64,000 nucleotides of DNA from Nannocystis bainbridge (lineage in GTDB: Bacteria; Myxococcota_A; Polyangia; Nannocystales; Nannocystaceae), in assembly GCF_028368995.1 (NCBI RefSeq), contig NZ_JAQNDL010000003.1, positions 2,720,001-2,784,000 of the forward strand, in the 5' to 3' direction. Positions 761 to 62,259 of the stretch are shown piece after piece. Below the pieces are notes generated by a model. It worked only from the letters and a program-made list of their open reading frames with translations, searched no databases and had not been told where the DNA came from. Each line of letters starts with the position of its first letter. The first letter of the stretch is position 1. Position numbers and translations under genes: made by a program.

Positions 761-1340
761 GGCCGGCAGCATAAGAGAATTCGGGCCCGCGGCGCCATCG
801 CGCGTCCGCTCACGCTGATGCGCCCAGCAGCGCCCCGCGAGCCCTGCGAGCACGCGTCCGCGCGAGCGCGCCGGGCCGCACCCGCGGCCGGCCCCGCGCT
901 GTCCGCTCCCCCTTGACGGCGCGACCCGCACCCGGAGATCGCCGCACCTCCGCCGGCAGACCCCCGCCTGCGGCCGCGCCGGATGGCGCGCTCGGTCCCC
1001 GCGCGCCCGCGTGCCCGCGGCGCCGACGTCCGCCGCCGCCTCCGACCGCCGCCCCGTCCGGGCCTGTCCCTTCGGACATCCGGTCTCCGCGCTCCCTGAC
1101 CGCATTTCACAATGCGCCGATCTTGCGTGACACCGGCGCAGCGGTGAATCAAAGCAGTTTGTTCTCAGCACATTGATCCGCGTCCGCGCGCGCCCCCGCC
1201 CGTCGCTCGCAGGCCCCAATCCATCCGCGTCTGCGCATTTCGTCGCCACGAATACGGCGTTCCTCGCGATCGCTCGTTCCCCGCCGCGTCCGTTCGCGCT
1301 TGAATGTAGCGAGACGCGAGCCTATCCTCGCCGCGGTCGG

Positions 1341-1732: not shown

Positions 1733-3258
1733 CCCCTCCTGAAACGCGAACTTGCTCGATTCGGACCCCCTCTGCCCCGCTCGTGCCCCACCTCGGTCGC
1801 CTCGAGCTCGACCCGCGGCTGGTCGTCCGCAGCTTCGACGCCGGCTTCGCCGCGCTCGCGGGCGAGCGCGCCGACGAGGTCCTCGGGCGCCCGCTCGACG
1901 CCCTCTTCAGCGTCCGTGACCGCCGGGGGATCCGCCGCTTCGACGAGGCCATCAGCCACAGCGACGCCCGCCACATCGACCTCCACATCGACCTTCACCT
2001 CGGCGCCCGCGACGTCCTCGCCCGCCTCCTCCTCTCGCGCACCGATGTCGGCTGGCTCGCCTTCGTCGAGGATCTCGGCGGCGCCGGCAACCTCGTGTCC
2101 GAGCTGGCCCACAGCCGCGAGCTGTGGCGCGAGGTCGTGCATCAATCGGCCGAGGGCGTCGCCGTGCTCGGCAGCGACGGCCGCCTGCTCGAGTACAACC
2201 CCGCCTTCTTCCGCCTGCTCGACCTCCGCTCGACCCGCAACATCGCCCTCAGCGAGGAGGCCGTGCGCGGCGCCCCGCTCGTCGACCTGCTGCTCGACGA
2301 CTCGCTCGCCCCTCTGCGCGAGCACCTCGCCGGCAGCGGCGGGCTCGCCCGCGAATTGCAGCACCGCAGTCGCTGCCTCGAGTTCGCCGTTCGCCCGCTC
2401 GCCTTGCCGCGCCAGCGGTTCGCCGGCGTCTGGCTGGCCTTGCGCGACATCACCGAGCGGCGCCGCGCCGAGCGTCTGCGGGCCGCCCTCGACGCCGCCC
2501 GCGAGGAGCTCTTGCTCAAGGAGAAGCTCGCCGCGCTCGGCGGCCTCGTCGACGGCATCGCCCACGAGCTCGGCGACCCGCTCGGCGTCGCCGTCACCGC
2601 CGCCGGCCTCGCCCGCGATCAGCTGCACGAGCTGCGCGCCTCGTTCGAGGCCGGCATCCTGCGCCAGCGCGACATGCGGCACCACCTGCAGCAGGCCCTG
2701 GCCGCCGCCGACCTCGCCCTCGCCAACCTGCGCCGCGCCGCCGCCCTCGTCGCTGGCGTCAAGCGGGTCGCCGTCGACAGCTCCGAGACAATTCGGAGGG
2801 ACATGTCCGTCGGGACATATGTCAATACCATCGTCGCCGGCCTGAGCCCGTGGACCGCCGGCACCCCGCACCGCGTCCACGTCGAACTGCGCGCCGACCC
2901 GCTCGTCTCCGTGTTCCCGGCCGCCCTGGCGCAGATCGTCACCAACCTGGTCCACAACGCCCTGACTCATGCCTTCCCTGCCGGTCGCCCCGGTCGCATC
3001 GTCGTGTGGGTCGACGTCGCCGGCGACAAGGTCGAGATAGGCTGCCGCGACGACGGCGTCGGCATGACCCCCACCACCTTGCCGCGGATCTACGAGCCCT
3101 TCTTCACCACCACCCGCGAGCACGGCACCGGCCTCGGCCTCTACATCGTCCACAACCTCGTCACCGACCTCCTGCGCGGCACCGTCGTCGCCCGCTCCAC
3201 CCCCGAGCGCGGCACCACCGTGGTCATCCGCTTCCCCGCCCGCCCCGCAGACCCGTGA
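1729..3258 (+). CDS. PAS-domain sensor histidine kinase
   Basis: PAS-like segments; H-box GIAHELGDPL, N-box QIVTNLVHNA, G1 DDGVGM, F EPFFTT, G2 GTGLGL. Confidence 0.93.
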   Translation: MTPPETRTCSIRTPSAPLVPHLGRLELDPRLVVRSFDAGFAALAGERADEVLGRPLDALFSVRDRRGIRRFDEAISHSDARHIDLHIDLHLGARDVLARLLLSRTDVGWLAFVEDLGGAGNLVSELAHSRELWREVVHQSAEGVAVLGSDGRLLEYNPAFFRLLDLRSTRNIALSEEAVRGAPLVDLLLDDSLAPLREHLAGSGGLARELQHRSRCLEFAVRPLALPRQRFAGVWLALRDITERRRAERLRAALDAAREELLLKEKLAALGGLVDGIAHELGDPLGVAVTAAGLARDQLHELRASFEAGILRQRDMRHHLQQALAAADLALANLRRAAALVAGVKRVAVDSSETIRRDMSVGTYVNTIVAGLSPWTAGTPHRVHVELRADPLVSVFPAALAQIVTNLVHNALTHAFPAGRPGRIVVWVDVAGDKVEIGCRDDGVGMTPTTLPRIYEPFFTTTREHGTGLGLYIVHNLVTDLLRGTVVARSTPERGTTVVIRFPARPADP

Positions 3259-3437: not shown

Positions 3438-4190
3438 ATGCTCTTCGACGCCCACCTCCACATCATCGAACCGCGCTTCCCGCTCGTCCCCAATCAAGGC
3501 TGGCTGCCCGCTGCTTTTGATGTCCCCGAGTACATGTCCCATGCGACAGCCATGGGCATCACTGGCGGCGCCGTCGTGTCCGGCTCGTTCCAGGCGTTCG
3601 ACCAGTCGTACCTCGAGGACGCCCTCGCCCGGCTCGGCCCCACCTACGTCGGCGTCACCCAGCTCCCGGCCGACGTCCCGGACGCCGAGGTCGTGCGACT
3701 GAACCATCTCGGCGTCCGGGCCGTGCGCTTCAACCTGCGTCGCGGTGGTTCGGCCGACCTCGCCGACCTCGAGACCCTCGCCCGCCGCGTCCACGACCTC
3801 GCGGGATGGCACACCGAGCTCTACGTCGATTCGTCCGACCTGTCGGAGCTCGCGCCGCGACTGCGTGCGCTGCCCCGGGTCAGCATCGATCACCTCGGCC
3901 TGTCGGCGGCCGGTCTGCCGACCTTGCTCGCGCTGGTCGAGCATGGCGTGCGCGTCAAGGCCACCGGCTTCGGCCGCGTCGACTTCGAAGTGGCTGACGT
4001 CCTGCGCCAGATCTCCGCCATCGACCCTCACGCCCTCATGTTCGGCACCGACCTGCCCTCGACCCGCGCCCCGCGGCCCTTCACACCCGCGGACCTCCCT
4101 CTTTTAAAAGAGGCCCTGAGCCCCGAGCTGTCACGCCGCGCCCTCTACGACAACGCGATCGCCTGGTACCGCCCCGCCGCCCTCGCATAA
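3438..4190 (+). CDS. Amidohydrolase family protein (Amidohydro_2, lactonase-like)
   Basis: N-terminal FDAHLH metal-binding motif, GVRAVRFN, SIDHLG, LMFGTDLP; ATG at 3438. Confidence 0.9.
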   Translation: MLFDAHLHIIEPRFPLVPNQGWLPAAFDVPEYMSHATAMGITGGAVVSGSFQAFDQSYLEDALARLGPTYVGVTQLPADVPDAEVVRLNHLGVRAVRFNLRRGGSADLADLETLARRVHDLAGWHTELYVDSSDLSELAPRLRALPRVSIDHLGLSAAGLPTLLALVEHGVRVKATGFGRVDFEVADVLRQISAIDPHALMFGTDLPSTRAPRPFTPADLPLLKEALSPELSRRALYDNAIAWYRPAALA

Positions 4191-6500: not shown

Positions 6501-7467
6501 CGCAGGACCCGCGGCGCCTGTCAATGCCGGCCCGTCCCCGCGTCGCCCTGCTCGCTCCACCTCGGGAGCCTTCTCCGGCGCGCGTCGCCTGACCATCATC
6601 CTCCGCGCGGAGACTCTGGCCGACCCGATCTTCTTCCTCGATCGACCTCGCCCCGTCGGGGTCGACCTCGCAGCCGCGTCCATGGGCGCTCGCCGACGTC
6701 CCCGTCGCTCCCTCCACGCTGCCCTGACCGCGCAAGCGACCACCGAGGAAGCAGGCAAAAAGCCGTTGCAGGCGCGAACGGACGGTCACGAAAACATCCA
6801 CGACGAGCGCTCCATCGATTCCTCGTTGGGTCTACACGCATACCATTGCCCTCGCAACGCCCGCTGGTCGTGAGTCCCAGCCACAACTCGATTTGGCCCC
6901 TCACCATCGCAGCAGGGCCAGCCCAACCGAGATTGGTGAGCCAATGCAATCTCTCGCCCTGGACCTTCGACGACGGCGACCGCATCCTGCTGAGCCGGCT
7001 CGCCCGCGATCTTCCACTCCCGACAATCGAATGCCACGGATCACCGCCTATGTACATTGTGCAGCCACGACCGCGACGACCTCGTCACCCCGCGAGCGCC
7101 GGCCGACGAGCACCTACATTGTCGACATCGACCCACCGCCAGACCCCAATTTCGCCCCACGCGGCCCCCGCCTCGCTTTCAGGGTCTGGCGCTGGCGCCG
7201 AGCTGACTACCTGCGCGGCCCTCCGCGGCCCACTCCGCGTGCGCACAATCGCTCGACTCAGCCCCTCCCGGACACCGCGAATTGCGCACTCTGAAGACGG
7301 CGCCAATCCCGCAGCTACCGCAGCCGGCGCAAACCTGGCTACGACCCGTTTACGGGGCCCCTCGTAGAATTGTGCGCGGCGCACGCAGCGCGATTGCTCT
7401 TCTCCCTGGGCAGTCCATGCAGGGGGTCCAGGGTGGCGTACGCGTCCCCGTGCCCACCGAGGATTCC

Positions 7468-7638
7468 ATGCGTGATCACAACCATACCCCTCAAGCCCCC
7501 TACCACCGGGAACACCCGAACATCCCGCTGTCGATGACGGCCGCGGACAGCGCCCCGTATACGGCCGCGTCCAGCTTCTCGCCGTGGGGCGGCGACGATT
7601 TGGAAGAGTGCGAAGAGGAGCCGTGCGCCTGGTCGTGA
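7468..7638 (+). CDS. Possible 56-aa small acidic protein
   Basis: GAGGA 4 nt upstream of the ATG; MRDHNHTPQAPYHREHPNIPLSMTAADSAPYTAASSFSPWGGDDLEECEEEPCAWS. Confidence 0.4.
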   Translation: MRDHNHTPQAPYHREHPNIPLSMTAADSAPYTAASSFSPWGGDDLEECEEEPCAWS

Positions 7639-7805
7639 CTGGCCTCTGGGCCAGGTCCTCGAGGACAGGCCCCTCTCGCGAGCCCGGCGCGTGAATTCCA
7701 AGGCGCGTCCGGCGATCGGGCGAAATTGCGCCAATTGACGAGAAGCTGGTCGTAAAGGGCGTCCAGACGATTGACAAGCGGTGGCCCGTCGGACGAATTG
7801 GGGCC

Positions 7806-8960
7806 GTGCAGTCCGTCACGCCCCTCACTGTGCGCATCCGCCGCGCGTTCTCTCGGCTGTTCGATTCGCGGCGGATCGGCCGCAGCATCGCCCTCGGCGC
7901 TGCGCTGTCCGTGCCGCTGATCGCTTGCACCTCGCTGACCCTCACTCGCCTGAATTCGGCGCAGAAGAAGCCCAACAACGTGTGGGTATTCTTCACCGTC
8001 GAGCAGAACGAGGAGCCGGTCGCAGGCCTCCAGGCCGAGGACTTCCAGATCTACGAAGACGGCGATCTGGTCTCGACCTACGAGAGCAAGCAGGTCATTC
8101 AGAACCCCGAGGTCGCGGCGGTCATGTACACCATGCTGCTGCTCGACGTGTCGGGCTCCGTGTCCGAGTCCGGCTCGGCGGACCAGTTGGTCGACGCCGC
8201 GCAGCTGTTCACCGACCGCGTCGGCAAGACCCAGAAGGTCGGCGTCTACGCGTTCGACGGTGAGAAGGAGCTGCACTCGGTGACGCCCTTCACCGAGTCG
8301 GAGGGCGCCGTCTCGGGCGGCCTCGACGGCCTGCGGACCTACAAGCCCAAGGACCCCTCGACCAACCTTCACGGTGCGGTCATGGAGGGGCTCAAGGAGC
8401 TCAAGAAGTCGCTCGACAAGGAGAAGAAGCCGCTCAAGTTCGGCACCCTCGTCGTGTTCACCGACGGCACCGACCGCGCCGCCCGCTTCTCGCGCGAGGA
8501 CATGAAGGGCGAGCTGCTGAAGGAGCAGTACAAGGACTACGAGATCTACGCGATCGGCGTCGGCGCGGAGATCAAGAAGGCCGGCCTCGGCGACATCGGC
8601 CGCGACGGCACCGAGCTGGCGACCGAGCAGACCGGCGTCAAGACGGCCTTCGAGAAGGTCGCCGACCGCATCGAGCGCCACACCAAGCGCTTCTACCTGC
8701 TGTCCTACTGCACCCCGGCGCGCAAGGGCACCCACACCGTCCGCATCGTCGCCAACAGCAAGAGCCCCAAGGGCTCCGGCCAGCTCGAGTGGGACTTCAA
8801 CGCCGACGGCTTCGGCCCCCCGCCTGAGTGCGACCCCAACACCCCGCCCGTGTTCCCGCTCAAGACCGGCGAGATCGTCGACACCGGCAAGATCCAGGGC
8901 GACAGCGGCAGCGGCGGCAAGGTCAAGGTCAAGGCCAGCGCCTCCGCCTCGGCCGGTTAA
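7806..8960 (+). CDS. VWA-domain probable lipoprotein
   Basis: Lipobox-like LIAC; MIDAS DVSGS, STNLHGA, VFTDG; strong GC3 bias. Confidence 0.88.
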   Translation: MQSVTPLTVRIRRAFSRLFDSRRIGRSIALGAALSVPLIACTSLTLTRLNSAQKKPNNVWVFFTVEQNEEPVAGLQAEDFQIYEDGDLVSTYESKQVIQNPEVAAVMYTMLLLDVSGSVSESGSADQLVDAAQLFTDRVGKTQKVGVYAFDGEKELHSVTPFTESEGAVSGGLDGLRTYKPKDPSTNLHGAVMEGLKELKKSLDKEKKPLKFGTLVVFTDGTDRAARFSREDMKGELLKEQYKDYEIYAIGVGAEIKKAGLGDIGRDGTELATEQTGVKTAFEKVADRIERHTKRFYLLSYCTPARKGTHTVRIVANSKSPKGSGQLEWDFNADGFGPPPECDPNTPPVFPLKTGEIVDTGKIQGDSGSGGKVKVKASASASAG

Positions 8961-8991
8961 CTGAGCCGCGCGCGCTCGCGTCAGCGCCGAG

Positions 8992-9022
8992 AAGGGCATG
9001 TCCTCGCGGACATGCCCTTTTT
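8992..9022 (+). terminator. Possible intrinsic terminator overlapping a 14-bp motif array
   Basis: Perfect 12-bp stem AAGGGCATGTCC/GGACATGCCCTT with TCGC loop and a short T run, ~30 nt after the stop codon. Confidence 0.5.
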
Positions 9023-9068
9023 GACATGGTCAAAAGAGCATGTCTCAGAGGGCATGACCATTCAGACA
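8999..9068. repeat. Five-unit phased array of the 14-bp TGTCC-N4-GGACA palindrome
   Basis: TGTCC-TCGC-GGACA|TGCCC-TTTT-TGACA|TGGTC-AAAA-GAGCA|TGTCT-CAGA-GGGCA|TGACC-ATTC-AGACA. Confidence 0.9.
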
Positions 9069-9180
9069 TGTCACGACATTGCGCGCCATGCATCACCCCG
9101 ACGCGCCCGAGCCGCCTCGACGCGCGCGTGATTCCAGCGCCCGCTTTTTGATAAAGCGAGAGAGAGTCTTTGGGACAGGC

Positions 9181-10935
9181 TCAGCCGCCGAGCCGGCGCG
9201 CCAGTTGGTCTTCGTACAGCGACGGCGGGTCGAGCGGCTCGACCTGACCGGGGCCCTCGACCCAGTCCTCCGGCGCGGTCCCGGCGGCGTCGGGCGACTC
9301 CAGGCTGGTCTCGACCGCCAGCTGCGGGCCGACCCCGATCACGTAGCCGTGGCCGAACTGGCGCGAGCGCACCACCCCCTTGCCGCTCGCGTTCCACACC
9401 GCCGACTGCGTCGCGCTGTGGCCGGCCCCGCTCGACCACGCCAGGCGATTGACCGCGCCCCAGCCGTCGTCGACCACGCTCTGGTCGAGCAGGTTCGCCG
9501 TCGCCAGCGAGTGGTGGAACTCCGACAGCCCCACCGTCCCGAACTCGCTGCCCATCAGCGCCACCGCCTTGCCCTCCGAGCTGTGCACCCGCAGCCACAC
9601 GATCCCCGTCGCGCCGAAGCCCCAGTTCTGCACGAAGTTGTGCCGCCCCGCCCGCGCCACGCAGTCGCGCACCAGCACCTCCCCGCTCTGCATCACCTCG
9701 AACAGATAGCCGTTGCCGCCGTCGCCGCGGTGCTGCGCCAGCTCGAGCGTGCTCTCGGCCACCGTCACCCGCGCGCTGCGCTGAATCGTCAGACCGCCGG
9801 ATTGCAGGTGGCGCCCGGACCCCTTGCCCTCCGCCGGCGCTCCTGGCGACACGAACGACCTCACCCCCGAGACCCACGCGTCGCGCACCCCGATCATCGC
9901 CACCGCGTACACCTGGTCCTGCGACCACGCGTCCTCCCAGCCGACCGCGTTGGCGACCCCGACGTCCATCAACGCCACCTCGCGCAGCAGCCCCGTCACC
10001 GGCCGCACGCTGGCCTGGTCGCGCACGAGCGCCGGGTAGCGCAGCGGCACGTCGAGCTCGAGCGTGCCGCTGACGCCGTCGACCGCCGTCACGGTGCGCC
10101 AGAAGAACGGCTGCCAGGTGTCGTTGAACTGCTGCCAGGTGCCCGTCATCGCGTGCTCGCCGACGAACGCCGGGGAGATCTGCCAACCGATGGCGATCTC
10201 GTCGCCGACCTTCAGGCTGCTCGGATCGGCCACCGTGATCGTGCGCGACCGCTCCTCTCCGCTCTCGGTCAGCGCCACGTCGACCCCCAGCTGCGGCGCG
10301 CCGGCGAACGTCAGATGTGCCTCATAGGACATGTCCGAAAAGGCAGTGAACCATAGTCGGCTCTGCTCGGCCCCGTCGCCCTGGATCACCGTGTTCGAGC
10401 TGCTGACCGTCAGCCGCCCGTCGACCCGGTAGAGCCCCGCCGGCAGGCGCACGACCGCCCCGCCGGCCGCGGCCGCGGCGTCGAGCGCGGCCTGCAGCGC
10501 CGCCGTCGCGTCGCTCGCCCCGGTCTGATCGGCCCCGTGGTCGCGCACCGCGTCGATCGTCTCGGCCGGCAACACGCTGCCCGGCGTCACCTCGGCCAGG
10601 CGATAGCCGGCGTACGAAAAATCGTGGAGATAGCGCCCCTCCGGCCCCGTGAACGCCGGCGTCCAGTCCTCCGGATAGAGCTCGCTGCGCCACCCCGCCG
10701 GCTCGCCGGTCGTGCTCGTCCCGTCGCCCGTGCTGCTGCTCGTCCCGGTCGGCCCCGTCGTGCTCGTCGGCTCGCCCGTGGTGCCTGACGGATCGCTCGT
10801 GGTCCCCGTCGTCGTGCCCGTCACCTCCGCGCCCGTGCTCGGGCCCTCGCCCGTCGAGGTCGACGCGCTCGTGCTGCCGTCGCCCCCGCCACAGGCCATC
10901 ACCCACACCACCGACGTCACCGCGAGCCGACGCAT
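9181..10935 (-). CDS. Secreted lipoprotein with a pectate-lyase-like beta-helix (probable polysaccharide-active enzyme)
   Basis: Signal ending VMAC, Thr/Ser/Gly linker, DFSYAGY, VRDHGAD..G.SDATAALQAA...VRLPAGLY. Confidence 0.82.
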   Translation of the reverse strand: MRRLAVTSVVWVMACGGGDGSTSASTSTGEGPSTGAEVTGTTTGTTSDPSGTTGEPTSTTGPTGTSSSTGDGTSTTGEPAGWRSELYPEDWTPAFTGPEGRYLHDFSYAGYRLAEVTPGSVLPAETIDAVRDHGADQTGASDATAALQAALDAAAAAGGAVVRLPAGLYRVDGRLTVSSSNTVIQGDGAEQSRLWFTAFSDMSYEAHLTFAGAPQLGVDVALTESGEERSRTITVADPSSLKVGDEIAIGWQISPAFVGEHAMTGTWQQFNDTWQPFFWRTVTAVDGVSGTLELDVPLRYPALVRDQASVRPVTGLLREVALMDVGVANAVGWEDAWSQDQVYAVAMIGVRDAWVSGVRSFVSPGAPAEGKGSGRHLQSGGLTIQRSARVTVAESTLELAQHRGDGGNGYLFEVMQSGEVLVRDCVARAGRHNFVQNWGFGATGIVWLRVHSSEGKAVALMGSEFGTVGLSEFHHSLATANLLDQSVVDDGWGAVNRLAWSSGAGHSATQSAVWNASGKGVVRSRQFGHGYVIGVGPQLAVETSLESPDAAGTAPEDWVEGPGQVEPLDPPSLYEDQLARRLGG

Positions 10936-11118
10936 GATCTCCAGCATGCCCGAGCACCGACCTCAGCCGTAAGGGGCCGCCGATCGCCGCTGCCTCACGA
11001 CCTCCGCCACAGCGCCTGACTGTTCGGACATGCCCTTACGGACATCTTCGAAAGTGCGCGCGGCCGCGGTCCGCCGACCCCGGCGAACAGCGGCCGGTTT
11101 CACTCGCAAAGACGTGTC

Positions 11119-12828
11119 GTGAATCTCACCCGAGCGGGAACTTTACCGCCCTCCGAGCGTGCCACCCTTTGCGTGAGCGCCCCCAGCGTGACCCCTGTCG
11201 CACCCGTCGTCGCCGAGGTCGTCGCCCGTCATCGCGGCCGCATCGTCGACGTCCAGCACGTCCGCTGGCGCGAGCCGCCCGCTGTCACTCCGGCGGCCTT
11301 GCTCGTCGGCGGCGCGGCGCTCTCGCTGCTCGGCCTCGCCCTCGCCCTGCGCGGCCTGGCCCAGGTCGGAGCCGCCGCCGCCTGCGAGCTGCCCCCCTGT
11401 CCCACCGTCGGCGCCGGCACTGGCCTCGGCGCCTGCCTCGTCGCCGCCGGCCTGCTCCCGCTGGTCCTCGGACTGGTCCGCTGGCGCGACCGCGCGCGCG
11501 CTCGCTACACCCTCGGCGAGGCCCCCGGGGCCGACTTCATCGTCGCCGTGCCCGGGGCCCCCGCCGAGGGCGTCCCGCTGATCATCGCCCTCGAGCAGGG
11601 CTTCGTGCTCGGCCTCCCGCCCGGCGCGCGCGGCCACGTCAGCGGCGACAGCCCGATCGACCTCGCCGAGGCCGTCGCCCAGGGCCGCCGCTCGCTCGCC
11701 CTCCCGGCCGGCGCCGCGGCCCGCATCGAGCTCGGCGACCTGACCTTCGAGATCTCCCAGGTCGCGCCCGCCGACGCCCCACACGACCCGATCGAGCTCG
11801 ACCGCCTCGCCTGGCTCAGCCACGCGGCCGCCCTCTTGCTGGTCGGCGGCTGGGCGCTGTGGCTCGGCACCTCCGAGCCGGTCGCCGTCGTGCTCGACCA
11901 CGAGGCGCAGATCGAGCTGGCCGCCCGCTACATCACCCCCGCGCCGCCGCAGCCCGAGTCGGCCCCGCCCCCGCCGCCGGTCACCACCCCACGCGTGGCG
12001 CTGCCGCGTCAGGTCGAGAAGCCCGCGCGCGCCCCCGAGCCTGCGCCCGAGCCCGAGGCCCCGCCGCTCGGCTTCGTCGTCGACGAGAGCGCCGGCCTGG
12101 TCGCCCCGTCCTCACCGGCAGCCTTCGCCCGTCGCCCGACCAAAGTCGGCTCTCGCTTCGACCGCCGCTTCGACTACGACCGCGTCGCCGGCCACCTCGG
12201 CGATCCCGGCTTCGTCGGCGCCGTCGAGGACTTCACCGTCAACATGAAGCACGGCCAGCGCGCCTACAAGGGCGGTCCCGAGGACGACGCCTGGTGGGCC
12301 CAGGCCACCGGCGGTCCCCCGCGCACCAGCAAGCATTTCGGCGGCCTCGAGCTCGCCGAGACCGAGCGCGGCGGCGGCCTCCACCCCGCCAAGCCCGCGG
12401 CCAAGCAGGCACCTGTCTCTCAGGTCACGTTGACCGCCTCGCGCGGCCTGCCGCCGCCGACCAAACAGGAGCTGGCCGAGGACCGCATCATCGCCCAGCT
12501 CCACATCGACGGCCCGGTGATCACCGGCGACGCCGGCCTCGACAAGATCGCCCTCAAGCAATACGCGCGCAAGCGGGCCGGCCCGTGGCGCGCCTGCTAC
12601 GAAAAGGCGCTGCTCAAGGACCCCGAGCTCGCCGGCATCATGCAGTTCCAGGTCCACTTCGACGAGGCCGGCGAGGCCACCCTCGCCCGCGTCAACTGGT
12701 CGACTCTCTCGATCGGCAAGATCGAGGACTGCCTCGCCAAGGCCTCGCTCGGCTGGCGGCTCGCGCCGATCATGCCCAAGCCGACCAAGGCCGTGTTCGA
12801 GCTGCAGTTCGAGTCGCACACCCGCTGA
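11119..12828 (+). CDS. Membrane protein with a Pro-rich linker and AgmX/PglI (TonB-like) C-terminal domain
   Basis: TM segments, Pro-rich region, C-terminal RACYEKALLKDPELAG...IEDCL; start uncertain. Confidence 0.7.
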   Translation: MNLTRAGTLPPSERATLCVSAPSVTPVAPVVAEVVARHRGRIVDVQHVRWREPPAVTPAALLVGGAALSLLGLALALRGLAQVGAAAACELPPCPTVGAGTGLGACLVAAGLLPLVLGLVRWRDRARARYTLGEAPGADFIVAVPGAPAEGVPLIIALEQGFVLGLPPGARGHVSGDSPIDLAEAVAQGRRSLALPAGAAARIELGDLTFEISQVAPADAPHDPIELDRLAWLSHAAALLLVGGWALWLGTSEPVAVVLDHEAQIELAARYITPAPPQPESAPPPPPVTTPRVALPRQVEKPARAPEPAPEPEAPPLGFVVDESAGLVAPSSPAAFARRPTKVGSRFDRRFDYDRVAGHLGDPGFVGAVEDFTVNMKHGQRAYKGGPEDDAWWAQATGGPPRTSKHFGGLELAETERGGGLHPAKPAAKQAPVSQVTLTASRGLPPPTKQELAEDRIIAQLHIDGPVITGDAGLDKIALKQYARKRAGPWRACYEKALLKDPELAGIMQFQVHFDEAGEATLARVNWSTLSIGKIEDCLAKASLGWRLAPIMPKPTKAVFELQFESHTR

Positions 12829-16785: not shown

Positions 16786-18075
16786 GTGACGGCCCTCGGC
16801 GTCGGCATCCTCGGCCTCGGCAACGTCGGCGCGGGCACGGTGCGGCTCCTCGGCGAACGCCGCGAGCGCATCGAAGCCCGCCTCGGGGTGGCCCCGACCA
16901 TTCGTCGTATCCTCGTGCGCGACCGCGAGCGCGAGCGGGCCGTCGAGGTCGCGCCGGAGCTGCTCACCACCGACATCGACGAGGTCCTCGGCGACCCCGA
17001 GATCGCCATCGTCGTCGAGCTCATGGGCGGCGTCGAACCGGCGCGCAGCTACATCCTGGCCGCGCTGCGGGCCGGCAAGCACGTCGTCACCGCCAACAAG
17101 GCGGTGCTCGCCGAGCGCGGCGCCGAGATCTTCGCCGAGGCCGCGCGGGTCGGTCGGGCCGTCGTCTTCGAGGGCAGCGTCGCCGGCGGGATCCCCCTGC
17201 TCCGCAGCCTGCGCGAAGGCCTCGCAAGCGACCGGATCACCGGCCTTTGCGGGATCGTCAACGGCACCTCCAACTACATCCTCGACGCCATGACCCGCAC
17301 CGGCGCCGGCTTCGCCGACGCGCTCGCCGGGGCCCAGGCCGCCGGTTACGCCGAGGCCGACCCCAGCCTCGACGTCGGGGGCGGCGACGCGGCCCACAAG
17401 CTGGCGCTGCTGGCCCTCGTGGCCTTCGGCGTGCAGGTCGACCCGGGCACGATCGCCACCGAGGGGATCTCCCACGTCACCGCGTTCGACATCCGGGCCG
17501 CGGCGGAGCTCGGGTTCGTCATCAAGAGCCTGGCGATCGGCCAGCGCGACGAGCACGGCGTCGGCCTCCGCGTCCACCCCACGCTGGTCCCCCGGGACCA
17601 CGTGCTCGCCGGCGTCCAGGGGGCCTTCAACGCCGTGCTGGTCCAGTCCGACGCCCTCGGCCCCAGCCTCTACTACGGCCGCGGCGCCGGCATGATGCCG
17701 ACCGCCGTCGCCGTGGTCTCCGACATCCTCGAGGTCGCCCGCGACATCCTCGCTGGCCTGTACTCGCGGCCAGGTCCTTCCGGACATGTCCCTTCGACCA
17801 CCTCAAAGCCCGTCAGCCTGCGCCCGCTGGCCGAGGTCGTCTGCGCGCACTACCTGCGCTTCCGCGCCCCGCACGTCCCCGGCGTGCTCGGCCGCGTCGC
17901 CGCCTGCCTCGGCCGCCACGGCGTCAGCATCCGCCGCATGGCGCAGGAGACCCCGTCGGCCGACGGCTCGGCGGCGATGGTCATGCTGACCGAGCCCGTC
18001 GCCGACGGCTCACTCGCGGCCGCCCTGGTCGAGGCCGCCCTGCCCGTCACCCGCCTGCGCCTGCTCGCGGAGTGA
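16786..18075 (+). CDS. hom: Homoserine dehydrogenase with C-terminal ACT domain
   Basis: GLGNVG, VVTANK, FEGSVAGGIP, GIVNGTSNYIL, GYAEADP..DVGGGDAAHK; GTG start inferred. Confidence 0.95.
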   Translation: MTALGVGILGLGNVGAGTVRLLGERRERIEARLGVAPTIRRILVRDRERERAVEVAPELLTTDIDEVLGDPEIAIVVELMGGVEPARSYILAALRAGKHVVTANKAVLAERGAEIFAEAARVGRAVVFEGSVAGGIPLLRSLREGLASDRITGLCGIVNGTSNYILDAMTRTGAGFADALAGAQAAGYAEADPSLDVGGGDAAHKLALLALVAFGVQVDPGTIATEGISHVTAFDIRAAAELGFVIKSLAIGQRDEHGVGLRVHPTLVPRDHVLAGVQGAFNAVLVQSDALGPSLYYGRGAGMMPTAVAVVSDILEVARDILAGLYSRPGPSGHVPSTTSKPVSLRPLAEVVCAHYLRFRAPHVPGVLGRVAACLGRHGVSIRRMAQETPSADGSAAMVMLTEPVADGSLAAALVEAALPVTRLRLLAE

Positions 18076-18234
18076 CGGCGGCTCGACCTGTTCGAAGAGA
18101 CAGATCGCGGCGTTCGGCGCGGTCGACGGCGGACCGACCTGCCCGAAGAGACAGTGATCGGCATGCGGCGCAGCCGGCCGAAGCTCCTCGGCCCGGCGAG
18201 CGACGATCGTGAATCACCTGTCCTCAGGGACAGC

Positions 18235-18540
18235 TCACACGATCTCCGGGAACACCGCGTCGTAGCGCAGCAGGCAGAAGATCGCCCGCGGCTGATCGCG
18301 GATCCCGGCGATGTGCAGCGCGCCTCCGCGCTGCTTGAGGTGCATGTACAGCCCCATGATCTTGGCCACCCCCGCGTTGTCGATGTGCTCCAGCCCGGAC
18401 AGCTCGAGCGTCACCTGCTTGCGGCCCTCGGCGAGCACCGCGTCGAACGGCGTGTCGGTGTTCGCCGCCGTCGCGGCATCGAGGCTGCCGGCGAGCGCGA
18501 GGGTGGTCGTATCGTCCTGGTCGGTGCGCGAGATCTGCAT
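18235..18540 (-). CDS. STAS-domain anti-sigma-factor antagonist-like protein
   Basis: 101 aa; LAGSLDAATA, LELSGLEHIDNAGV. Confidence 0.85.
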   Translation of the reverse strand: MQISRTDQDDTTTLALAGSLDAATAANTDTPFDAVLAEGRKQVTLELSGLEHIDNAGVAKIMGLYMHLKQRGGALHIAGIRDQPRAIFCLLRYDAVFPEIV

Positions 18541-18607
18541 GGGCTTCGCCGCATCGTAGCCCGGCGCCCGGCCCATGCACGAGCGCGATCCGCCGCGAGC
18601 CTCCGCG

Positions 18608-20077
18608 CTATGAGACGTCGGCCTCGATGCGCGCCACCAGCCGCTCGCAGAGCGTCTCCACGTACTCGCGCGACGCCAGCGCGCGCAGCCACGCCTCCGG
18701 GATCGCCGCGCGCCCGTGCATCGCCCCGGCCAGCGCCCCCGTGACCGCCGCCGTCGTGTCCGTGTCCTCGCCGAGGTTGATCGCTGCCAGCACGGCCGCC
18801 TCGTAGCTCGGGTGATTCGCCGCGCACCACAGGCTCGCCTCGAGGCAGTGCACCACATAGCCGCTGCCGCGGATCGCCGACGCCGGCGCCTCGACGATCG
18901 ACCCGTCGAGGATCGCCGCGAGCACCTCGCGCTCCGCATCCGGCACGAACGGCGCCAGCTGTTGCGACGCCGTCGTCATCGCCTGCGCCAGCGGCCGCCC
19001 CTGCACCACCTGCGCCAGCAGCAGCGAGAAGTACGCGCAGCACAGCTGCGAGCGCGGGTGCGCGTGCGTCAGCCCGCTGACCTCCATGCTGCAGCGAACG
19101 ATCTCCGCCGGCGCCAGCGCGCGGGTGAACAGCGACAGCGGCGCGATCCGCATCAGCGACCCGTTGCCGTTGTCGCGCTCGCTGCGGCAGCCCCACTCGC
19201 TCGCCGGGGCGCCGTGGGCGTGGCGGGCGATCGCGCTGCGCGTGGCGATGCCGACGTCGAACACCGCCCCGTGCGGCGTGTATGCCTGTCCCTTGAGCCA
19301 GGTCAAGAACCGCGCCATCATGTCGGGTGGGTCGTAGCCGTTGTGGATCAGGCTGTCGGCGGTGGCCAGCAGCAGCGAGCTGTCGTCGGACCACGTCCCC
19401 GGCGGCTGATCATACGTCCCGTGGCCGCGCACCCCCGTGACCGGGTCCGCGGACAGTTGCTCGCGGCTGCGGAATTCGACGGGGACACCGAGCGCATCAC
19501 CGACCACGGCCCCGAGCAGGCACCCGAGCATGCGCGCATGCGCGTCGACGCTTGCCGAGGGCCCAGGGTCGGCCAGAATCGCCGCATACGCCTCATGCAC
19601 GGCCCCGTCGAAGCACACCAGCACGACCCGCTCGATCGCGGCGTCCTCGGCCAGGAACGCCGAGATCGTGCGCACCGCGACGGCGCAGGCCTCCGCGATC
19701 GGGTAGCCGTAGATGCCGCACGAGATCGCCGGGAAGGCGATCGTGCGCAGCCCGTGGGCCCGCGCCAGCTCGAGGCTGCTGCGATAGCACGACGCCAGCA
19801 GCGCCTCCTCGCCGCGATGGCCCCCGTTCCACACCGGGCCCACCGTGTGGATCACGTGCTTCGCCGGCAGGCGATGGCCGCCGGTGATCTTCGCCTGTCC
19901 CGTGGGGCAGCCGTGGAGCATGCGGCACTCCTCGACCAGCTCGCGCCCGGCCGCGCGGTGGATCGCCCCGTCGACCCCGCCACCGCCGAGCAGCGACGTG
20001 TTGGCCGCGTTGACGATCGCGTCCACCGCGAGCCGCGTGATGTCCCCGCGAACCAGCTCGATCCGTCGCTCCGCCAT
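18608..20077 (-). CDS. Macrodomain (YmdB-like) fused to an ADP-ribosylglycohydrolase
   Basis: Macro part: [42 protein letters not shown] part: [31 protein letters not shown]. Confidence 0.93.
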
Positions 20078-20166: not shown

Positions 20167-20853
20167 ATGAAGGAGGCCCGCGTGCTGCAGCCGATCGACA
20201 CCAACTTGTGGACCGCCACCCAGCCGCTGCGCATGCTCGGCCTGCAGATCGGCGCTCGCATGACCATCGTCCGGCTCGGCTCCGGCGGCCTCCTGGTCCA
20301 CGCGCCGATCGGTCTGACCCCCGAGCTGCGGGCCGAGATCGACACGCTCGGGCCGGTGCAGGTCGTCATCGCTCCCAACTCGATGCACCACCTGTTCCTC
20401 GGGCCCTTCCTCGCCGCCTACCCGCAGGCGCGCGGCTACGCGGTCGCCGGCGCGATCGCCAAGCACCCCGAGCTGCAGCTCGAGAGCATCCCCAACAACC
20501 CCGACCTGCTCTGGGCCGGCGACCTCGACCAGATCGAGCTCGAGGGCGCCCCCAAGCTCGGCGAGGTCGCCTTCTTCCACCGCGCCTCGCGCACGCTGAT
20601 CCTCACCGACTGGGTGTTCTACTTCGAGCAGGCGCCCAACTGGATCACCGGGCTCTACCTCCGCCTCACGCGCGCCCTCGGCAAGCCGACCCAGACCGCG
20701 GTGATGAAGGGCCTGATCAAGGACCGGGCCGCCGCCCGCGCCTCGATCGAGCGCCTGTTGCAGTGGGACTTCGACCGCGTCGTCATGAGCCACCGCGACA
20801 TCCTGCCGGCCGGCGGCAAGCAGGCCGTGCGCGCCGCCACCGCCTGGCTGTAG
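20167..20853 (+). CDS. DUF4336-like protein (metallo-beta-lactamase-like fold)
   Basis: RMTIVRL..GGLLVHAP, APNSMHHLF, EVAFFHRASRTLILTD, WDFDRVVMSH. Confidence 0.85.
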   Translation: MKEARVLQPIDTNLWTATQPLRMLGLQIGARMTIVRLGSGGLLVHAPIGLTPELRAEIDTLGPVQVVIAPNSMHHLFLGPFLAAYPQARGYAVAGAIAKHPELQLESIPNNPDLLWAGDLDQIELEGAPKLGEVAFFHRASRTLILTDWVFYFEQAPNWITGLYLRLTRALGKPTQTAVMKGLIKDRAAARASIERLLQWDFDRVVMSHRDILPAGGKQAVRAATAWL

Positions 20854-20900
20854 CGCCAGGTCCTTCGCGGCATGTTCTCTGCGACAGGTCCCATGGGACA
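20845..20900. repeat. Four-unit phased 14-bp motif array spanning a stop codon, spacer and the next start codon
   Basis: TGGCT-GTAG-CGCCA|GGTCC-TTCG-CGGCA|TGTTC-TCTG-CGACA|GGTCC-CATG-GGACA. Confidence 0.75.
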
Positions 20901-21899: not shown

Positions 21900-22682
21900 T
21901 CACGGCGCCAGCCACACGTCGCCGGACTCGACCCTGCGCGGCGGCCCGCCGTCTGCCAGCGCGACCATCAGCGCCCCGTCGTCGGCCAGCCCCAGCGCCT
22001 TTGCCTGCACCTTCGGGCCTGCCCCATTCGACATGTCCACAAAGACATCCCGATCTCGCAGCGCGCAGTGGGGCTCGTAGCGGCCGCGGATCGCCGCGAA
22101 CCCGCCGGAGAAGAACTGCTCCAGCGCGGCCTCCAGCGCCGGCAAGATCCGCCCCAGCACCGCCTCGCGGCTCGGCGTTGCTTCGCCCAGCTCGCGGCGC
22201 AGGCTCGTCGCCGTCGCTGCCAGCGGCTCGGGGAACAGCGACCGACCCACGTTGACGCCGAAGCCGACCACCACCTCGGGCGACGACCCGACCCACCGCG
22301 CCTCGCAGAGGATCCCCGCCAGCTTGCGGCCTTCGACCAGCACGTCGTTGGGCCACTTCAGCTGCGCCGCTGGCAGCCAACGCGACAGGCCCTCGCGCAG
22401 CCCTGCGCCCACCGCCAGCCCGAGCGCCCCGATCGGCTTGCCCGCGTCCGGCCGCAAGATCGCGCTGACATACAGGTCCTCGCCCGACTCCGACGCCCAC
22501 GCCCGCCCCAGCCGCCCGCGCCCCGCCGTCTGTGCGTCCGCGGTCACCAGCGCCCCGTGCGGCGCCCCGGCCCGCGCCCACGCCAGCGCGCGATCGTTGG
22601 TCGACCCGAGCTCGGCCCAGTGCTCGCGCGGGCGCCCGAGCCAGCGCGTCGCAAAGGCCATATTTTCGAAGGAGTCGCTCAC
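21900..22682 (-). CDS. birA: Biotin--[acetyl-CoA-carboxylase] ligase without N-terminal HTH
   Basis: STND, QTAGRGRLGRAW, LKWPND, KLAGILCE, GFGVNV. Confidence 0.94.
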   Translation of the reverse strand: MSDSFENMAFATRWLGRPREHWAELGSTNDRALAWARAGAPHGALVTADAQTAGRGRLGRAWASESGEDLYVSAILRPDAGKPIGALGLAVGAGLREGLSRWLPAAQLKWPNDVLVEGRKLAGILCEARWVGSSPEVVVGFGVNVGRSLFPEPLAATATSLRRELGEATPSREAVLGRILPALEAALEQFFSGGFAAIRGRYEPHCALRDRDVFVDMSNGAGPKVQAKALGLADDGALMVALADGGPPRRVESGDVWLAP

Positions 22683-22863
22683 GCCCGCCCCCCGCAGGGC
22701 ATCCGCCGTTGCGAGCCCCTGGACAGGCGCATCGTCAGCACGAACACCCTCGATCGCTCGAAGAATCTGTCCCTTCGGACATCCCCAGCGCTCCGCGCGA
22801 GCATCCGCGCACGCGGTCGCTCTTCACTGCACATGTCCCTTCAGACATGCCCCATTCACCGGC

Positions 22864-40283: not shown

Positions 40284-40561
40284 GGCTCGCAGAGCGGCAT
40301 GTCCCAAAGGACAGCCGTGAGCGCGCCGAGATCTTGCAGCCGCAGCGATCGCGTCGGTCGACGATCGTCTGGGGTGACACAGGAGCGGGCAGCAGCCGCG
40401 CGGGCCGTCGATCTCGAAGTCCACGCCGCCCTGTCGACCCGGCATCGGCCATCGCGGGCCCTCGGCGCCGCTCGCCCGGGCCGATGACCCCCGCGGTTCA
40501 CGCTCGCGCTGCGTGCTGACGCGCGCCGGGCGCTCGTGTATCCTCGCGCGCACCAGCGCGC

Positions 40562-48708: not shown

Positions 48709-50118
48709 TCAGGCCGCCGCTGCTGCTGCCTGATCGGCGCGGCCGAGCAGCGCGTCTGCGGCCGGACCGATCACCCCGATCAGCGCGTCGCGGCACAGCG
48801 TCACCTGCTCGTCGGGCATCAGCCGCCCGTGCGCGCGCAGCAGCTCCGGATCGGCGTCTGCCGGCCACGGGCGGACGCCGACCGGCTCGCGCAGGGCCGC
48901 GGCGAACGCCTCGCGCACCGCCTCGCGCACCGCGGGCGAGCGGCCGAGGGCCCACTGCACGAACCGCCAGGCCAGCTGCGAGTGGCGGCCCTCGTCGACG
49001 GCGATCTGCCGCAGCACGCTGCGGACCACGTAGTCGCTGGTCTGGAACGCGGCGACCTGGGCCAGCAGGGCCGCCAGCGTCTCGCCGACGCAGCCCTCGC
49101 GCACCGCCGCGGCGGCCAGCGCCGGCAGGTCGCTGTCGCCGAGCGCATCGGACATGTCCAAACGGCCAGGTCCCATCGGGCTGCCCGCGTACGCGCCCGC
49201 CAGCGCGTAGCAGGCGCGCGCGTGTGCGATCTCGTCGGCCATCGCCCGCTGCGCCCCGTCGACCAGCGACGCCGGCGCGCCGATGGCCAGCAGCTGCAGC
49301 GCGAAGCGGGCGAACGAGGCCACCGACGCGTGCTCCTCGGCCGCCGTCGCGCCCCACAGCTCGGCCAGCGCGGCGCGGGTCGGCTCGTCGAGGCCCGTGA
49401 GCGACGGCAAGATCTGACCCTGCCAGTCGCTGCGGCGCAGGCTCGGCGCCACCCGGCCCGCGCCCTCGACCATGAACGGCCGGCCCTCGCACACCATCCC
49501 GTCGCCGTGGGCGACGAAGTAGCAGCACTGGTCCGGAGCGGCCGGCATCGGGTCCGGCCCGCACTGCACGGTCAGATCGGTGTAACTGCAGAACGGGTCG
49601 CCGGTGGCCGCCGCGTTGGCCCAGCTCTGGCTGCACGCCTCGTCGCAGGCGGCGCAGTCGGCCAGGCCGTCGGGCACCGGGAAGCACACGTACTTCTGCA
49701 TCAGCCCCGGCGGCGGCGGCTCGCACGTGAACTCGCCCGGCTCGTCGGTGGTCCCGGGCTCGCCCGTCGTCGTCGTCGTGCTCGTCGTCGTGCCGCTGGT
49801 CTCGCCGGTCGTGCTGGTGGTCTCCTCGCCGGTGATCGTGTTCGGCGTCGTCGTCGTGCCCGGCGCGGTCGTGGCCTCGCTCGTCGAGGTCGTCACGCCC
49901 TCCGTGGTGGCCGTCAATTCGCCCGGGTCATCGGTCGTGCCGGTGAGCGGCCCCGACGTCACTGCGCCGGTGGTCGAAGTGGTCGAGCTGGTCGAGGTCG
50001 ATTCGGGTTCGGTCCCCGCGTTCGTCTCGCTGCTCGCGCCCCCGCAGGCGGCCACCAGCCCCAGCGCCGCCATCAGCTCGACATAGAAGGCGCGGGTCAC
50101 GGCAAAGTGGGAGCGCAT
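48709..50118 (-). CDS. Ferritin-like-domain lipoprotein
   Basis: VAAC lipobox, Thr linker, Cys-rich segment, GRPF; EEHASVASF, DEIAH, EGCVGET, DEGRH di-iron-type motifs. Confidence 0.85.
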   Translation of the reverse strand: MRSHFAVTRAFYVELMAALGLVAACGGASSETNAGTEPESTSTSSTTSTTGAVTSGPLTGTTDDPGELTATTEGVTTSTSEATTAPGTTTTPNTITGEETTSTTGETSGTTTSTTTTTGEPGTTDEPGEFTCEPPPPGLMQKYVCFPVPDGLADCAACDEACSQSWANAAATGDPFCSYTDLTVQCGPDPMPAAPDQCCYFVAHGDGMVCEGRPFMVEGAGRVAPSLRRSDWQGQILPSLTGLDEPTRAALAELWGATAAEEHASVASFARFALQLLAIGAPASLVDGAQRAMADEIAHARACYALAGAYAGSPMGPGRLDMSDALGDSDLPALAAAAVREGCVGETLAALLAQVAAFQTSDYVVRSVLRQIAVDEGRHSQLAWRFVQWALGRSPAVREAVREAFAAALREPVGVRPWPADADPELLRAHGRLMPDEQVTLCRDALIGVIGPAADALLGRADQAAAAAA

Positions 50119-50432
50119 GCGGGAAACCTAGCCAAGCCCTGCCGGGCACGCCACCGGGCTCATGCGATTCGCGCCACCACCCGCGCCCCGTGTTCGCCCG
50201 CCCTCCGTCGATCACATCCGGTGCCGTGAAGCAGGCCCACGAAATGCGGCGCTCGTCACCAGTTCGCGCAGTTGCGCGCACCTGTCCCTTCGGACATCCG
50301 AGTGGGCCCGATCGCAACGCTCGCATGGGTAAAAGCAACGTGTTTCAACCGACCTCGTCGGCAGTCGCCGGGGCCGGCACCCACGTTCGCGGGCCCGATC
50401 TCTCCGGCACCTCGCTCGTCGCCGCCAGCGAG

Positions 50433-61123: not shown

Positions 61124-62259
61124 CGCGGCGAGCGCTGGTGGCCCTCGCCGCCCTGCTCGCCTGCGGCCAGCCTCAAGGGACAGGTCCCAACAAACCTGCC
61201 CCGAGCGACATGTCCTCAAAGACAGCCCCGGAGCCGGCCCCCGCGCCGGAGCCGGAGCCCGAGCGCGCGGCCCCGCCGGTGCGCAAGGACGGCACGATCT
61301 ACGCCGAGACCCAGCAGATGGGCACCCGCGTCTCGATCAACGTCCACGTCGGCGAGCGCGCCCCGGCCGAGGCGGGCGCGGCGATCGAGGCCGCGTTCGC
61401 GGAGATCGAGCGTGTCGAGCAGATCATGAGCGAGTGGCGGCCGAGCAGCGAGCTGTCACAGCTCAACGACGGCGCCGGCGGCCCGCTGCGCCCGCTGAGC
61501 GTCGATCTCTTCGACATCCTGCAGCGCAGCAAAGAGATCGCCCAGGCCACCGGTGGCGCCTTCGATCCGACCTTCTACAGCGTCGGCCAGCTGTGGAAAT
61601 ACGACCCCGGCAGCCGCCCGCCGACGCGCGAGGCGATCCTCGAGAAGCTGCCGCTGGTCGACTGGCGCTCGATCGAGCTCGACCCCGCCACCCGCAGCGG
61701 TCGCCTCGCCAAGCCCGGCATGAAGATGGGCCTCGGCGCGATCGCCAAGGGCTACGCGGTCGACCGCGCCTCGACCATCCTGCGCGAGCGCGGCTTCCCC
61801 GATCACATCGTCGAGGGCGGCGGCGACACCTTCGTCTCCGGCACCAAGGCCGGCAAGACCTGGATGGTCGGCATCCAGCGCCCCGACGGCCCCGGCTCGA
61901 TCGCCGCCATCCCGGCCCGCGACCGCGCCGTCGTCACCTCGGGCGACTACCAGCGCTTCATCGAGTTCGAGGGCGTCCGTTACTCGCACATCCTCGACCC
62001 GCGCACCGGCTTCCCCGTGCCCGAGGATCGCAGCCTGCAGAGCATCACGATCCTCGCGCCCAACGCCACCGACGGCGACGCCTACGCCACCGCCGTCGCA
62101 GTCATGGGCGTCGACGCCGGCCTCGAGTTCATCACCTCGCACCCTGGCCTCGACGCCGCGCTCATCACTCGCACCGGCGAGCTCCGCGTCACGCCCGAGC
62201 TGGCGAAGATCCTCGTCTACCCGCAAGACAAGCCCGCTCCGCCGCCGCCGGCCCCGTGA
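61120..62259 (+). CDS. apbE: FAD:protein FMN transferase lipoprotein
   Basis: LLAC lipobox; MGT, SELSQLN, GAFDPT, GAIAKGYAVD, VTSGDYQR, HILDPRTG. Confidence 0.94.
   Translation: MTRRALVALAALLACGQPQGTGPNKPAPSDMSSKTAPEPAPAPEPEPERAAPPVRKDGTIYAETQQMGTRVSINVHVGERAPAEAGAAIEAAFAEIERVEQIMSEWRPSSELSQLNDGAGGPLRPLSVDLFDILQRSKEIAQATGGAFDPTFYSVGQLWKYDPGSRPPTREAILEKLPLVDWRSIELDPATRSGRLAKPGMKMGLGAIAKGYAVDRASTILRERGFPDHIVEGGGDTFVSGTKAGKTWMVGIQRPDGPGSIAAIPARDRAVVTSGDYQRFIEFEGVRYSHILDPRTGFPVPEDRSLQSITILAPNATDGDAYATAVAVMGVDAGLEFITSHPGLDAALITRTGELRVTPELAKILVYPQDKPAPPPPAP

Follow-up and report, generated by a model that had tools for sequence, protein, structure and literature searches.

A 14-bp palindrome with zero-gap stacking in a 64-kb window of Nannocystis DNA: a candidate half-site lattice for a DNA-binding protein

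Introduction

The cyanobacterial word HIP1 (GCGATCGC) is over-represented 15- to 300-fold, and periodicity has been reported for it (PMC5861425; also PMC4390886). In Myxococcus xanthus, the cited account of MrpC gives the site TGTYN8RAC and 1608 putative sites, a third of them away from promoters (PMC4320627), while that of the nucleoid protein CdbA gives more than 500 sites, with a GC-rich word that contains a 4-bp gap and is enriched between genes (PMC7156744). Here we describe a 14-bp palindrome, TGTCC-N4-GGACA, found singly and in rows of abutting units in a 64-kb stretch of DNA from the myxobacterium Nannocystis bainbridge (contig NZ_JAQNDL010000003.1, positions 2,720,001 to 2,784,000; hereafter, the window). 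The longest row, an array at 8985-9082, had been singled out in an earlier note on this DNA. All motif counts refer to this one window unless controls are named.

Other systems share single properties with the motif. REP and BIME elements are short palindromes that cluster at regular spacing, often between convergent genes, and avoid genes; MetJ reads abutting palindromic boxes as a cooperative repeat array; the FNR-type box is laid out as a 5-4-5 palindrome; and recognition by orphan DNA methyltransferases belongs to the picture of a HIP1-type word. Operators of the PadR family consist of inverted ATGT/ACAT arms with an 8-nt spacer (PMC3506622, PMC5050560), and work on a PadR-type protein of C. 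difficile describes several shifted complexes and puts forward higher-order oligomerization on DNA (PMC3506622 / PMC5050560). BldC is described as forming a filament on a variable number of degenerate 9-bp direct repeats (PMC5859096).

Results

The basic word is a 5-bp arm, (T/G)GTCC, together with its complement, and the 14-bp unit that makes up the array is also found singly all over the window. Seven exact copies of TGTCC-N4-GGACA are present in 64 kb, against approximately 0.02 expected from Markov simulations. Scanning exact arms over spacers of 0-20 bp (TGTCC-Nk-GGACA) gave seven matches at k=4, one at k=17, and none at all other lengths, and all 29 other permutations of the arm gave no match. 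Allowing one mismatch raises the number of sites to 26, compared with 1.8 in Markov simulations (maximum 5).

Negative controls were drawn from a scan of genome contigs for homoserine dehydrogenase, which supplied at least 80 loci (identity of 54% or less) and 1.32 Mb of unrelated bacterial DNA; Nannocystis was absent among the 80 loci listed. Together, the 80 loci hold one exact site and 31 with up to one mismatch. The 22 loci with a GC content of at least 60% (352 kb) hold no exact site and five with up to one mismatch, or 0.9 per 64 kb. Two myxobacterial control loci, one from the Haliangiales and one from a distant Nannocystaceae genome, contain no sites, each being only 11 kb long. Over-representation of the motif is thus 15- to over 100-fold.

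The first base of the unit is T or G and the last is A or C. Among the 26 sites with up to one mismatch, the preceding base is always A or C (A in 15) and the following base always T or G (T in 11), and inclusion of one flanking base per side gives a 16-bp palindrome. Beyond these one or two bases, the flanks of the copies have nothing in common. Within the spacer, positions 7 and 8 are A or T in 44 and 45 of 74 sites with up to two mismatches (approximately 60%, against a background of 29%); such a centre is common in sites whose middle is compressed or bent by a bound dimer. Three sites, at 1065-1078, 22768-22781, and 50283-50296, are the identical 14-mer TGTCCCTTCGGACA in the same context (c-...-tcc). 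The spacer CTTC lies nine times on the + strand and twice on the other, numbers too few to sustain a claim of polarity. Literature searches with the word written as TGTCCNNNNGGACA, TGTCCN4GGACA, TGTCC-N4-GGACA, or TGTCCCTTCGGACA found no paper, subscription journals and bioRxiv supplements lying outside the search; searches that joined the arms to the term myxobacteria, or the genus name to palindromic repeat, returned only primer noise or unrelated papers.

The phasing of units is not confined to the array. In the set of 74 sites, a lag of exactly 14 bp separates 11 pairs, where 0.09 would be expected at any one lag (nine pairs with the array excluded); two pairs lie at 28 bp, three at 42 bp, and at most one at any other lag up to 70 bp. 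The autocorrelation proposed in the earlier note, run here within the window, has one large peak, at lag 14, in agreement with the note's prediction. Scored with a position weight matrix, the window yields 14 chains, each two to four units long, compared with 0.075 in the null. Exact TGTCC arms number 62; for 21 of them a partner lies across N4 (null 0.9), and for 12 a partner abuts (null 0.7), and the arms therefore form a lattice that alternates between gaps of 4 and 0. Because units abut at zero gap, their junctions carry a 10-bp palindrome, GGACA directly followed by TGTCC, and hence CATG.

Zero-gap phasing had been claimed for six places besides the array, and abutting units are present at all of them. 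Two rows put at three units, 22006-22047 and 49141-49182, shrink to two; position 49141 contributes a right arm only, with an exact GGACATGTCC junction at 49150. The junction within 7640-7667 is CAGG in place of CATG. Six arrays that the earlier note does not list lie at 2790-2817, 5249-5276, 17759-17800, 20845-20900, 39215-39242, and 61169-61224 (see Table 1 for four of these).

The array occupies the spacer between two convergent genes, A (7806-8960, +), whose product carries a VWA domain, and B (9181-10947, -), whose product is lipoprotein-like with a pectate-lyase-like domain. Full units run from 8999 to 9068. The partial units previously described on both sides are real: in 8985-8998 only the right arm (GGGCA) is good, and in 9069-9082 only the left (TGTCA). 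CATG occurs at 8997, 9011, 9025, 9039, 9053, and 9067, giving six sites and five steps of exactly 14 bp, as the earlier note had it; its TG...CA ends are a majority rule and not a strict one. An equally valid reading takes the array as six full junction palindromes of 10 bp, each with CATG at its centre (8997-9067). There are 228 CATG tetramers in the window. In 300 first-order Markov simulations, 14-bp chains reached two members at most, and the control DNA (80 loci, 1.32 Mb) contains 15 chains of two and none longer; a chain of six therefore greatly exceeds what chance would give. The lattice extends across the window, and the array is its longest local stretch.

The units of the array are alike only at consensus positions. 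Tandem Repeats Finder yields no report for the array, and its self-identity is 46, 41, 54, and 48% at lags of 14, 28, 42, and 56 bp, which bears out both the divergence of the units and the earlier judgment that recent slippage is unlikely. A direct repeat of 37 nt is present (42-bp spacing, 73% identity); a 42-bp super-repeat was considered and rejected, as it rises only weakly above the 14-bp signal. A rotation of 120 degrees per unit, also put forward in the earlier note, is correct arithmetic (14/10.5 turns) and is not evidence for a filament.

A gene map based on GC content at third codon positions (GC3) and corrected with Pfam leaves 18% of the window as intergenic, and six of the seven exact sites are located there. 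The spacers concerned are divergent, convergent, and co-directional alike, and motif density is 4-fold higher between genes. Sites within genes are nevertheless enriched approximately 6-fold, with 14 (up to one mismatch) where 200 synonymous-codon shuffles average 2.39 and never exceed six; three of the 14 coincide with, or are close to, gene starts that are uncertain. By frame, the genic sites number 6, 5, and 3; they encode unrelated peptides, and the excess therefore belongs to the DNA and not to the peptide.

In the homoserine dehydrogenase gene (hom), three units lie in a linker whose length in the five closest homologs exceeds that in the next clade by 7-10 residues. A peptide of this linker, GPSG(H/Q), corresponds exactly to unit 2 of the row and is kept in four of the five closest homologs despite the variability of the linker. 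Its retention hints at a constraint at the DNA level, the relatives being compared as proteins and not as codons. Linker length speaks for an origin of genic sites by insertion; the sites in the biotin-ligase gene and gene B, which fall in ordinary coding sequence, speak against it, and two-unit rows (28 bp) could not have entered in frame.

The first arms of the array form a strong hairpin (8988-9023), which none of 200 shuffles equals. An inverted repeat of 12 nt with 100% complementarity underlies it, its flanks are an A-rich run and T5, and it begins 28 nt after the gene A stop codon. It is probable, judging from these features, that the hairpin is an intrinsic terminator made of lattice arms, possibly a bidirectional one. 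Part of the array would thus have a second, simpler explanation, because its first units form a terminator-like hairpin behind a stop codon; that explanation leaves the remaining four CATG steps, and the arrays at other places, unaccounted for. A second hairpin (9013-9054) overlaps the first, and the two are therefore mutually exclusive. A simple consensus scan for promoters and terminators returned none of either, and so listed neither hairpin. Rfam gave only two matches to microRNA models, far below threshold (E 0.35 and 0.47). The decamers of 8994-9017, 4 bp apart, resemble the p53 response element of animals, which is taken as a coincidence in a bacterium.

Single units fold weakly, with 5-6 pairs and -7 to -9 kcal/mol. 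At site 40300, the stem extends to 10 pairs with one bulged base (-15.3 kcal/mol). A T run follows only the first hairpin of the array, among all sites. Watson-Crick pairs at mirrored positions, compared with the expectation from column composition, number 27/22.9 (2-13), 23/22.6 (3-12), 27/24.2 (4-11), and 27/23.6 (5-10). Four of the five mirrored arm pairs are therefore at expectation, from which it follows that the letters are kept, and not pairing as such.

Table 1. Positions of the array, its units and hairpins, and other motif sites in the window
Feature	Coordinates	Strand	Description
Array	8985..9082		Five full 14-bp units, right-arm-only unit 8985, left-arm-only unit 9069
Array unit	8999		TGTCC-TCGC-GGACA; 0 mismatches to 10 consensus positions; 18.0 bits
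Array unit	9013		TGCCC-TTTT-TGACA; 2 mismatches; 10.8 bits
Array unit	9027		TGGTC-AAAA-GAGCA; 4 mismatches; below 3 bits
Array unit	9041		TGTCT-CAGA-GGGCA; 2 mismatches; 13.0 bits
Array unit	9055		TGACC-ATTC-AGACA; 2 mismatches; 11.0 bits
Strong hairpin	8988..9023	+	GGGCATGTCC, loop TCGC, GGACATGCCC; first arms of array; -27.7 kcal/mol, z -9.5
Second hairpin	9013..9054	+	Units 9013 and 9041 pair around 9027; -24.6 kcal/mol, z -5.4
Exact single site	1065..1078		Between divergent genes by the rough map
Two units	2790..2817		Inside histidine-kinase gene; unit 2804 exact
Two units	3521..3548		1 + 1 mismatches; at or just before amidohydrolase gene start
Two units	7640..7667		2 + 1 mismatches; junction CAGG, not CATG; 138-152 bp upstream of gene A
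Two units	10318..10345		2 + 2 mismatches; exact GGACATGTCC junction; inside gene B
Two units	11017..11044		2 + 1 mismatches; divergent spacer, gene B / gene at 11173
Three units	17759..17800		Homoserine dehydrogenase gene; encode LYSRPGPSGHVPST in variable linker before ACT domain
Exact single site	18219..18232		2 bp past STAS gene stop
Four units	20845..20900		Between DUF4336 gene stop (20853) and TetR-family gene
Two units	22020..22047		2 + 1 mismatches; biotin-ligase gene, encode DVFVDMSNG; adjoining unit 22006 has 4 mismatches
Exact site 22768 and 1-mismatch site 22834	22768..22847		Spacer, quinolinate phosphoribosyltransferase / biotin-ligase genes
Exact single site	40300..40313		16 bp past a stop codon
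Good unit and weak neighbor	49155..49182		1 mismatch, 3 at 49169; gene of unknown family
Exact single site	50283..50296		136 bp past stop of DNA methyltransferase gene
Four units	61169..61224		Across spacer and predicted ApbE gene start

Some sites have further motif-like sequence around them. Site 22834 has partial units on both sides, with CATG at 22832 and 22846. Just after the hom stop codon, two near-identical 20-mers, cgaccTG..CGAAGAGACAg, lie 51 bp apart at 18084-18103 and 18135-18154; they contain the weak units 18089 and 18140, with the spacer in the opposite orientation (GAAG), and share a convergent spacer with the 18219 site. Three motif variants ending in GGCCA, 39 and 36 bp apart and not abutting, lie at 62616-62704, just upstream of a predicted Ser/Thr kinase start.

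The window has a GC content of approximately 71% and steadily more C than G on the + strand. GC skew is negative in all 2-kb bins (C 25211, G 20349), the + strand being C-rich irrespective of gene direction. The genes identified with Pfam are ordinary chromosomal ones and include dnaG, rpoD, hom, nadC, biotin ligase, hemE, a P450, and many Ser/Thr and His kinases. The homoserine dehydrogenase is 93% identical to the Nannocystis exedens protein, and its next-best named matches are from Nannocystaceae, Enhygromyxa, and Plesiocystis. Searches of plasmids gave no match to 7000-12000 (near mode) or to the spacer 8961-9180 (distant mode), and phages gave no match to that spacer. A tblastn search with a kinase of the window found no myxobacterial plasmid, the top organisms being Streptomyces, Rhodococcus, and Mycobacterium.

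Several neighboring features were recorded alongside. A gene at 50433-51488 (-) encodes an N6/N4 DNA methyltransferase (PF01555, E 1e-40), and no restriction partner is apparent beside it. At 18608-20077 (-), a Macro domain and an ADP-ribosylglycohydrolase domain are fused in a single protein, whose gene adjoins a small one with a STAS domain (18235-18576). Upstream of an O6-methylguanine methyltransferase gene, an 870-bp gap without annotation contains three imperfect direct repeats of approximately 51 nt at 36082-36243 (and 35909-36018), with a spacing of 54-57 bp and 63-78% identity, beside a family of 18-nt GC-rich repeats. Two stretches of approximately 1.3 kb, 6488-7806 and 33044-34322, are without a convincing gene, and no open reading frame tested in them has a Pfam match.

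Discussion

What this window shows is the motif with its spacing rule and phasing, the distribution of its sites, and their fold energies. The explanation we favor, and to which we give about an even chance of being right, is that the motif forms a half-site lattice for an abundant homodimeric DNA-binding protein, with cooperation between neighboring dimers. Binding of a protein to duplex DNA is a better fit to the sequence than an element acting as a folded strand, because the arms lack pairing co-variation, the spacer centre is A/T-rich, and genic enrichment extends to all frames.

From these features we infer a protein reader, its dimeric state, and cooperative binding. In the proposed mechanism, each 14-bp unit would accommodate a single homodimer of an abundant protein that recognizes this sequence, a putative global regulator or nucleoid-associated protein with reading heads approximately 9 bp apart. 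Neighboring dimers would touch, and weak units such as 9027 might then be filled through cooperativity. Rows of two to 5-7 units would form patches of high occupancy. In the array, the first arms would additionally fold in the transcript, giving a strong hairpin with U5 after it, close behind gene A, and the patch would probably double as a terminator between the convergent genes.

The geometry of the motif invites comparison with known regulators. The strong sites share the (A)TGT-N8-ACA(T) arrangement of PadR-family operators exactly, and TGT-N8-ACA occurs 17 times in the window against 3.4 expected. The motif differs in that its fourth and fifth arm positions (CC/GG) are as conserved as TGT/ACA, in that it implies sites by the thousand in a genome, as opposed to a few promoters, and in its zero-gap 14-bp stacking, which is not among the features that the accounts cited above describe for PadR operators. 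MrpC is similar in the start of its arms (TGTY), its dimer-read palindrome, its very many genomic sites, and its myxobacterial host. However, the spacing in the motif is 2 bp shorter: TGTC-N6-GACA is found 13 times (0.77 expected) and TGTC-N8-GACA not at all (0.67 expected), and on this ground a site of the MrpC/CRP type was rejected. Stacked arrays, moreover, do not figure in what is cited here for MrpC. Five-bp arms across a favored 4-bp spacer reproduce the FNR-type layout with arm letters that differ from those of the FNR box. CdbA was rejected as a match since its word, as described in the cited account, is a direct repeat, whereas the present one is inverted. The TetR-family gene adjoining 20845-20900 was likewise ruled out as the reader, because the word occurs everywhere. 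No regulator gene that would explain the motif was found beside the arrays among the window's open reading frames scanned with Pfam.

Stacking and abundance have separate parallels. As in the available description of BldC, the number of abutting units varies and degenerate units are tolerated next to good ones; however, BldC is described there as an asymmetric multimer on 9-bp head-to-tail direct repeats, in contrast to the 14-bp palindromes seen here. The BldC and MetJ systems are promoter-local, whereas the motif is spread through genes. For a palindrome spread over both genes and spacers, HIP1 is the nearest analog: it is likewise hyper-abundant in both, with over-representation of the same order and periodicity, and its function is given as unknown in the material cited. 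The motif too is in many-fold excess in coding and non-coding DNA. HIP1, however, comes from another phylum and is a contiguous 8-mer, whereas the motif is gapped, 14 bp long, strict in its spacer, stacked at zero gap, and denser between genes. REP/BIME elements resemble the motif in clustering at regular spacing between genes, and differ in that the stem of the motif is only 5 bp and its sites also occupy divergent spacers.

Several observations weigh against the favored explanation. Good sites occur approximately once per 2.5 kb, a density much higher than an ordinary regulator would have, and among the 68 open reading frames of the window scanned with Pfam there is no gene of the PadR or CRP/FNR family. 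The spacer is not free, being CTTC or GAAG in 11 of 74 sites (0.4 expected), and the recurrent spacer and identical 14-mers could mean that copies have descended from one another. The outermost pair of the palindrome does co-vary, as T..A or G..C (40 against 26 expected). The array folds very well as a single strand, and its whole spacer outdoes shuffled sequence on either strand (z -3.4 and -3.1). A stop codon precedes many of the sites by 1-50 bp (18089, 18219, 20873, 22834, 23822, 27996, and 40300). The position weight matrix used to count chains was built from the window's own sites, and is to that extent circular; the gene map is a rough one; and all of the evidence comes from a single 64-kb window.

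Some of these points would be accommodated by REP/BIME-like hairpin elements that act single-stranded, as RNA or unwound DNA, and have spread as copies. Such elements could serve as terminators, transcript stabilizers, or substrates of a hairpin-binding, transposase-like enzyme, and the array would be a cluster of hairpins between convergent genes. We consider this unlikely, though it is a serious rival. The two array hairpins, the first with its U5 at 28 nt past a stop codon, the fold of the whole spacer, the sites behind stop codons, the identical 14-mers with the CTTC centre of nine sites, and the longer stem at 40300 all fit it. Against these stand the weak folds of lone units, the want of compensatory changes in four of five arm pairs, the restriction of the T run to the first hairpin, and flanks common to copies over one or two bases at most. 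Sites also occur in divergent promoter spacers (1065, 7640-7782, 11017-11044), Rfam has no significant match, and the genic enrichment is at odds with REP elements, which avoid genes.

A second rival, which we also judge improbable, is a signature word comparable to HIP1 or to uptake sequences, kept by a process acting on DNA (methylation-linked repair, recombination, or uptake) without regulating its neighbors. Enrichment in spacers and in all three frames of genes, by way of synonymous choices, is what such a word would show; the excess observed lies within the range given for HIP1, for which periodicity is reported too (PMC5861425), and a DNA methyltransferase gene is present in the window. 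Nothing, however, ties that gene (50433-51488) to the word. The 4-fold higher density between genes also counts against this rival, as does the contrast of a gapped motif having a strict 4-bp spacer and zero-gap stacking with the contiguous 8-mer of HIP1; these rules of spacing and stacking point to a reader with dimer geometry. Were the process on DNA a binding protein, the signature word and the lattice explanation would overlap.

Chance, base composition, or a decayed and functionless slippage repeat of 14 or 42 bp is very improbable: the 37-nt direct repeat and the slightly higher self-identity at lag 42 (54%) than at lag 14 (46%) are all that speaks for it, and it is contradicted by the absence of CATG chains longer than two from simulations and controls, the recurrence of the unit and its zero-gap rule at 13 or more other places including genes, inter-unit identity confined to consensus positions with no report from Tandem Repeats Finder, the specificity for a 4-bp spacer, the lag-14 peak, the chain counts, and the site excess.

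It is tempting to carry the lattice explanation further, to a code that extends through the Nannocystis genome, in which zero-gap 14-bp palindromes, placed in spacers and in genes through synonymous codons, would be read by an undescribed, abundant, polymerizing protein, with three units making four helical turns. The outcome would be a sequence-programmed nucleoid filament that marks gene ends and starts, a chromosome-organizing element undescribed in any bacterium. This extension we regard as doubtful.

The word is directly testable, because the grammar of its sites (arm, spacer, and stacking rule) is already defined. Whichever explanation holds, it offers a practical marker of gene boundaries in the annotation of Nannocystis, and a caution that short palindromes within genes can be under selection at the DNA level. 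If the word is HIP1-like, it would be a second, independent case of a cyanobacterial puzzle that is decades old, with clearer geometry. If instead a protein reads it, the lattice would represent a new global DNA-binding system in the Myxococcota, whose large genomes and their regulation are poorly understood.

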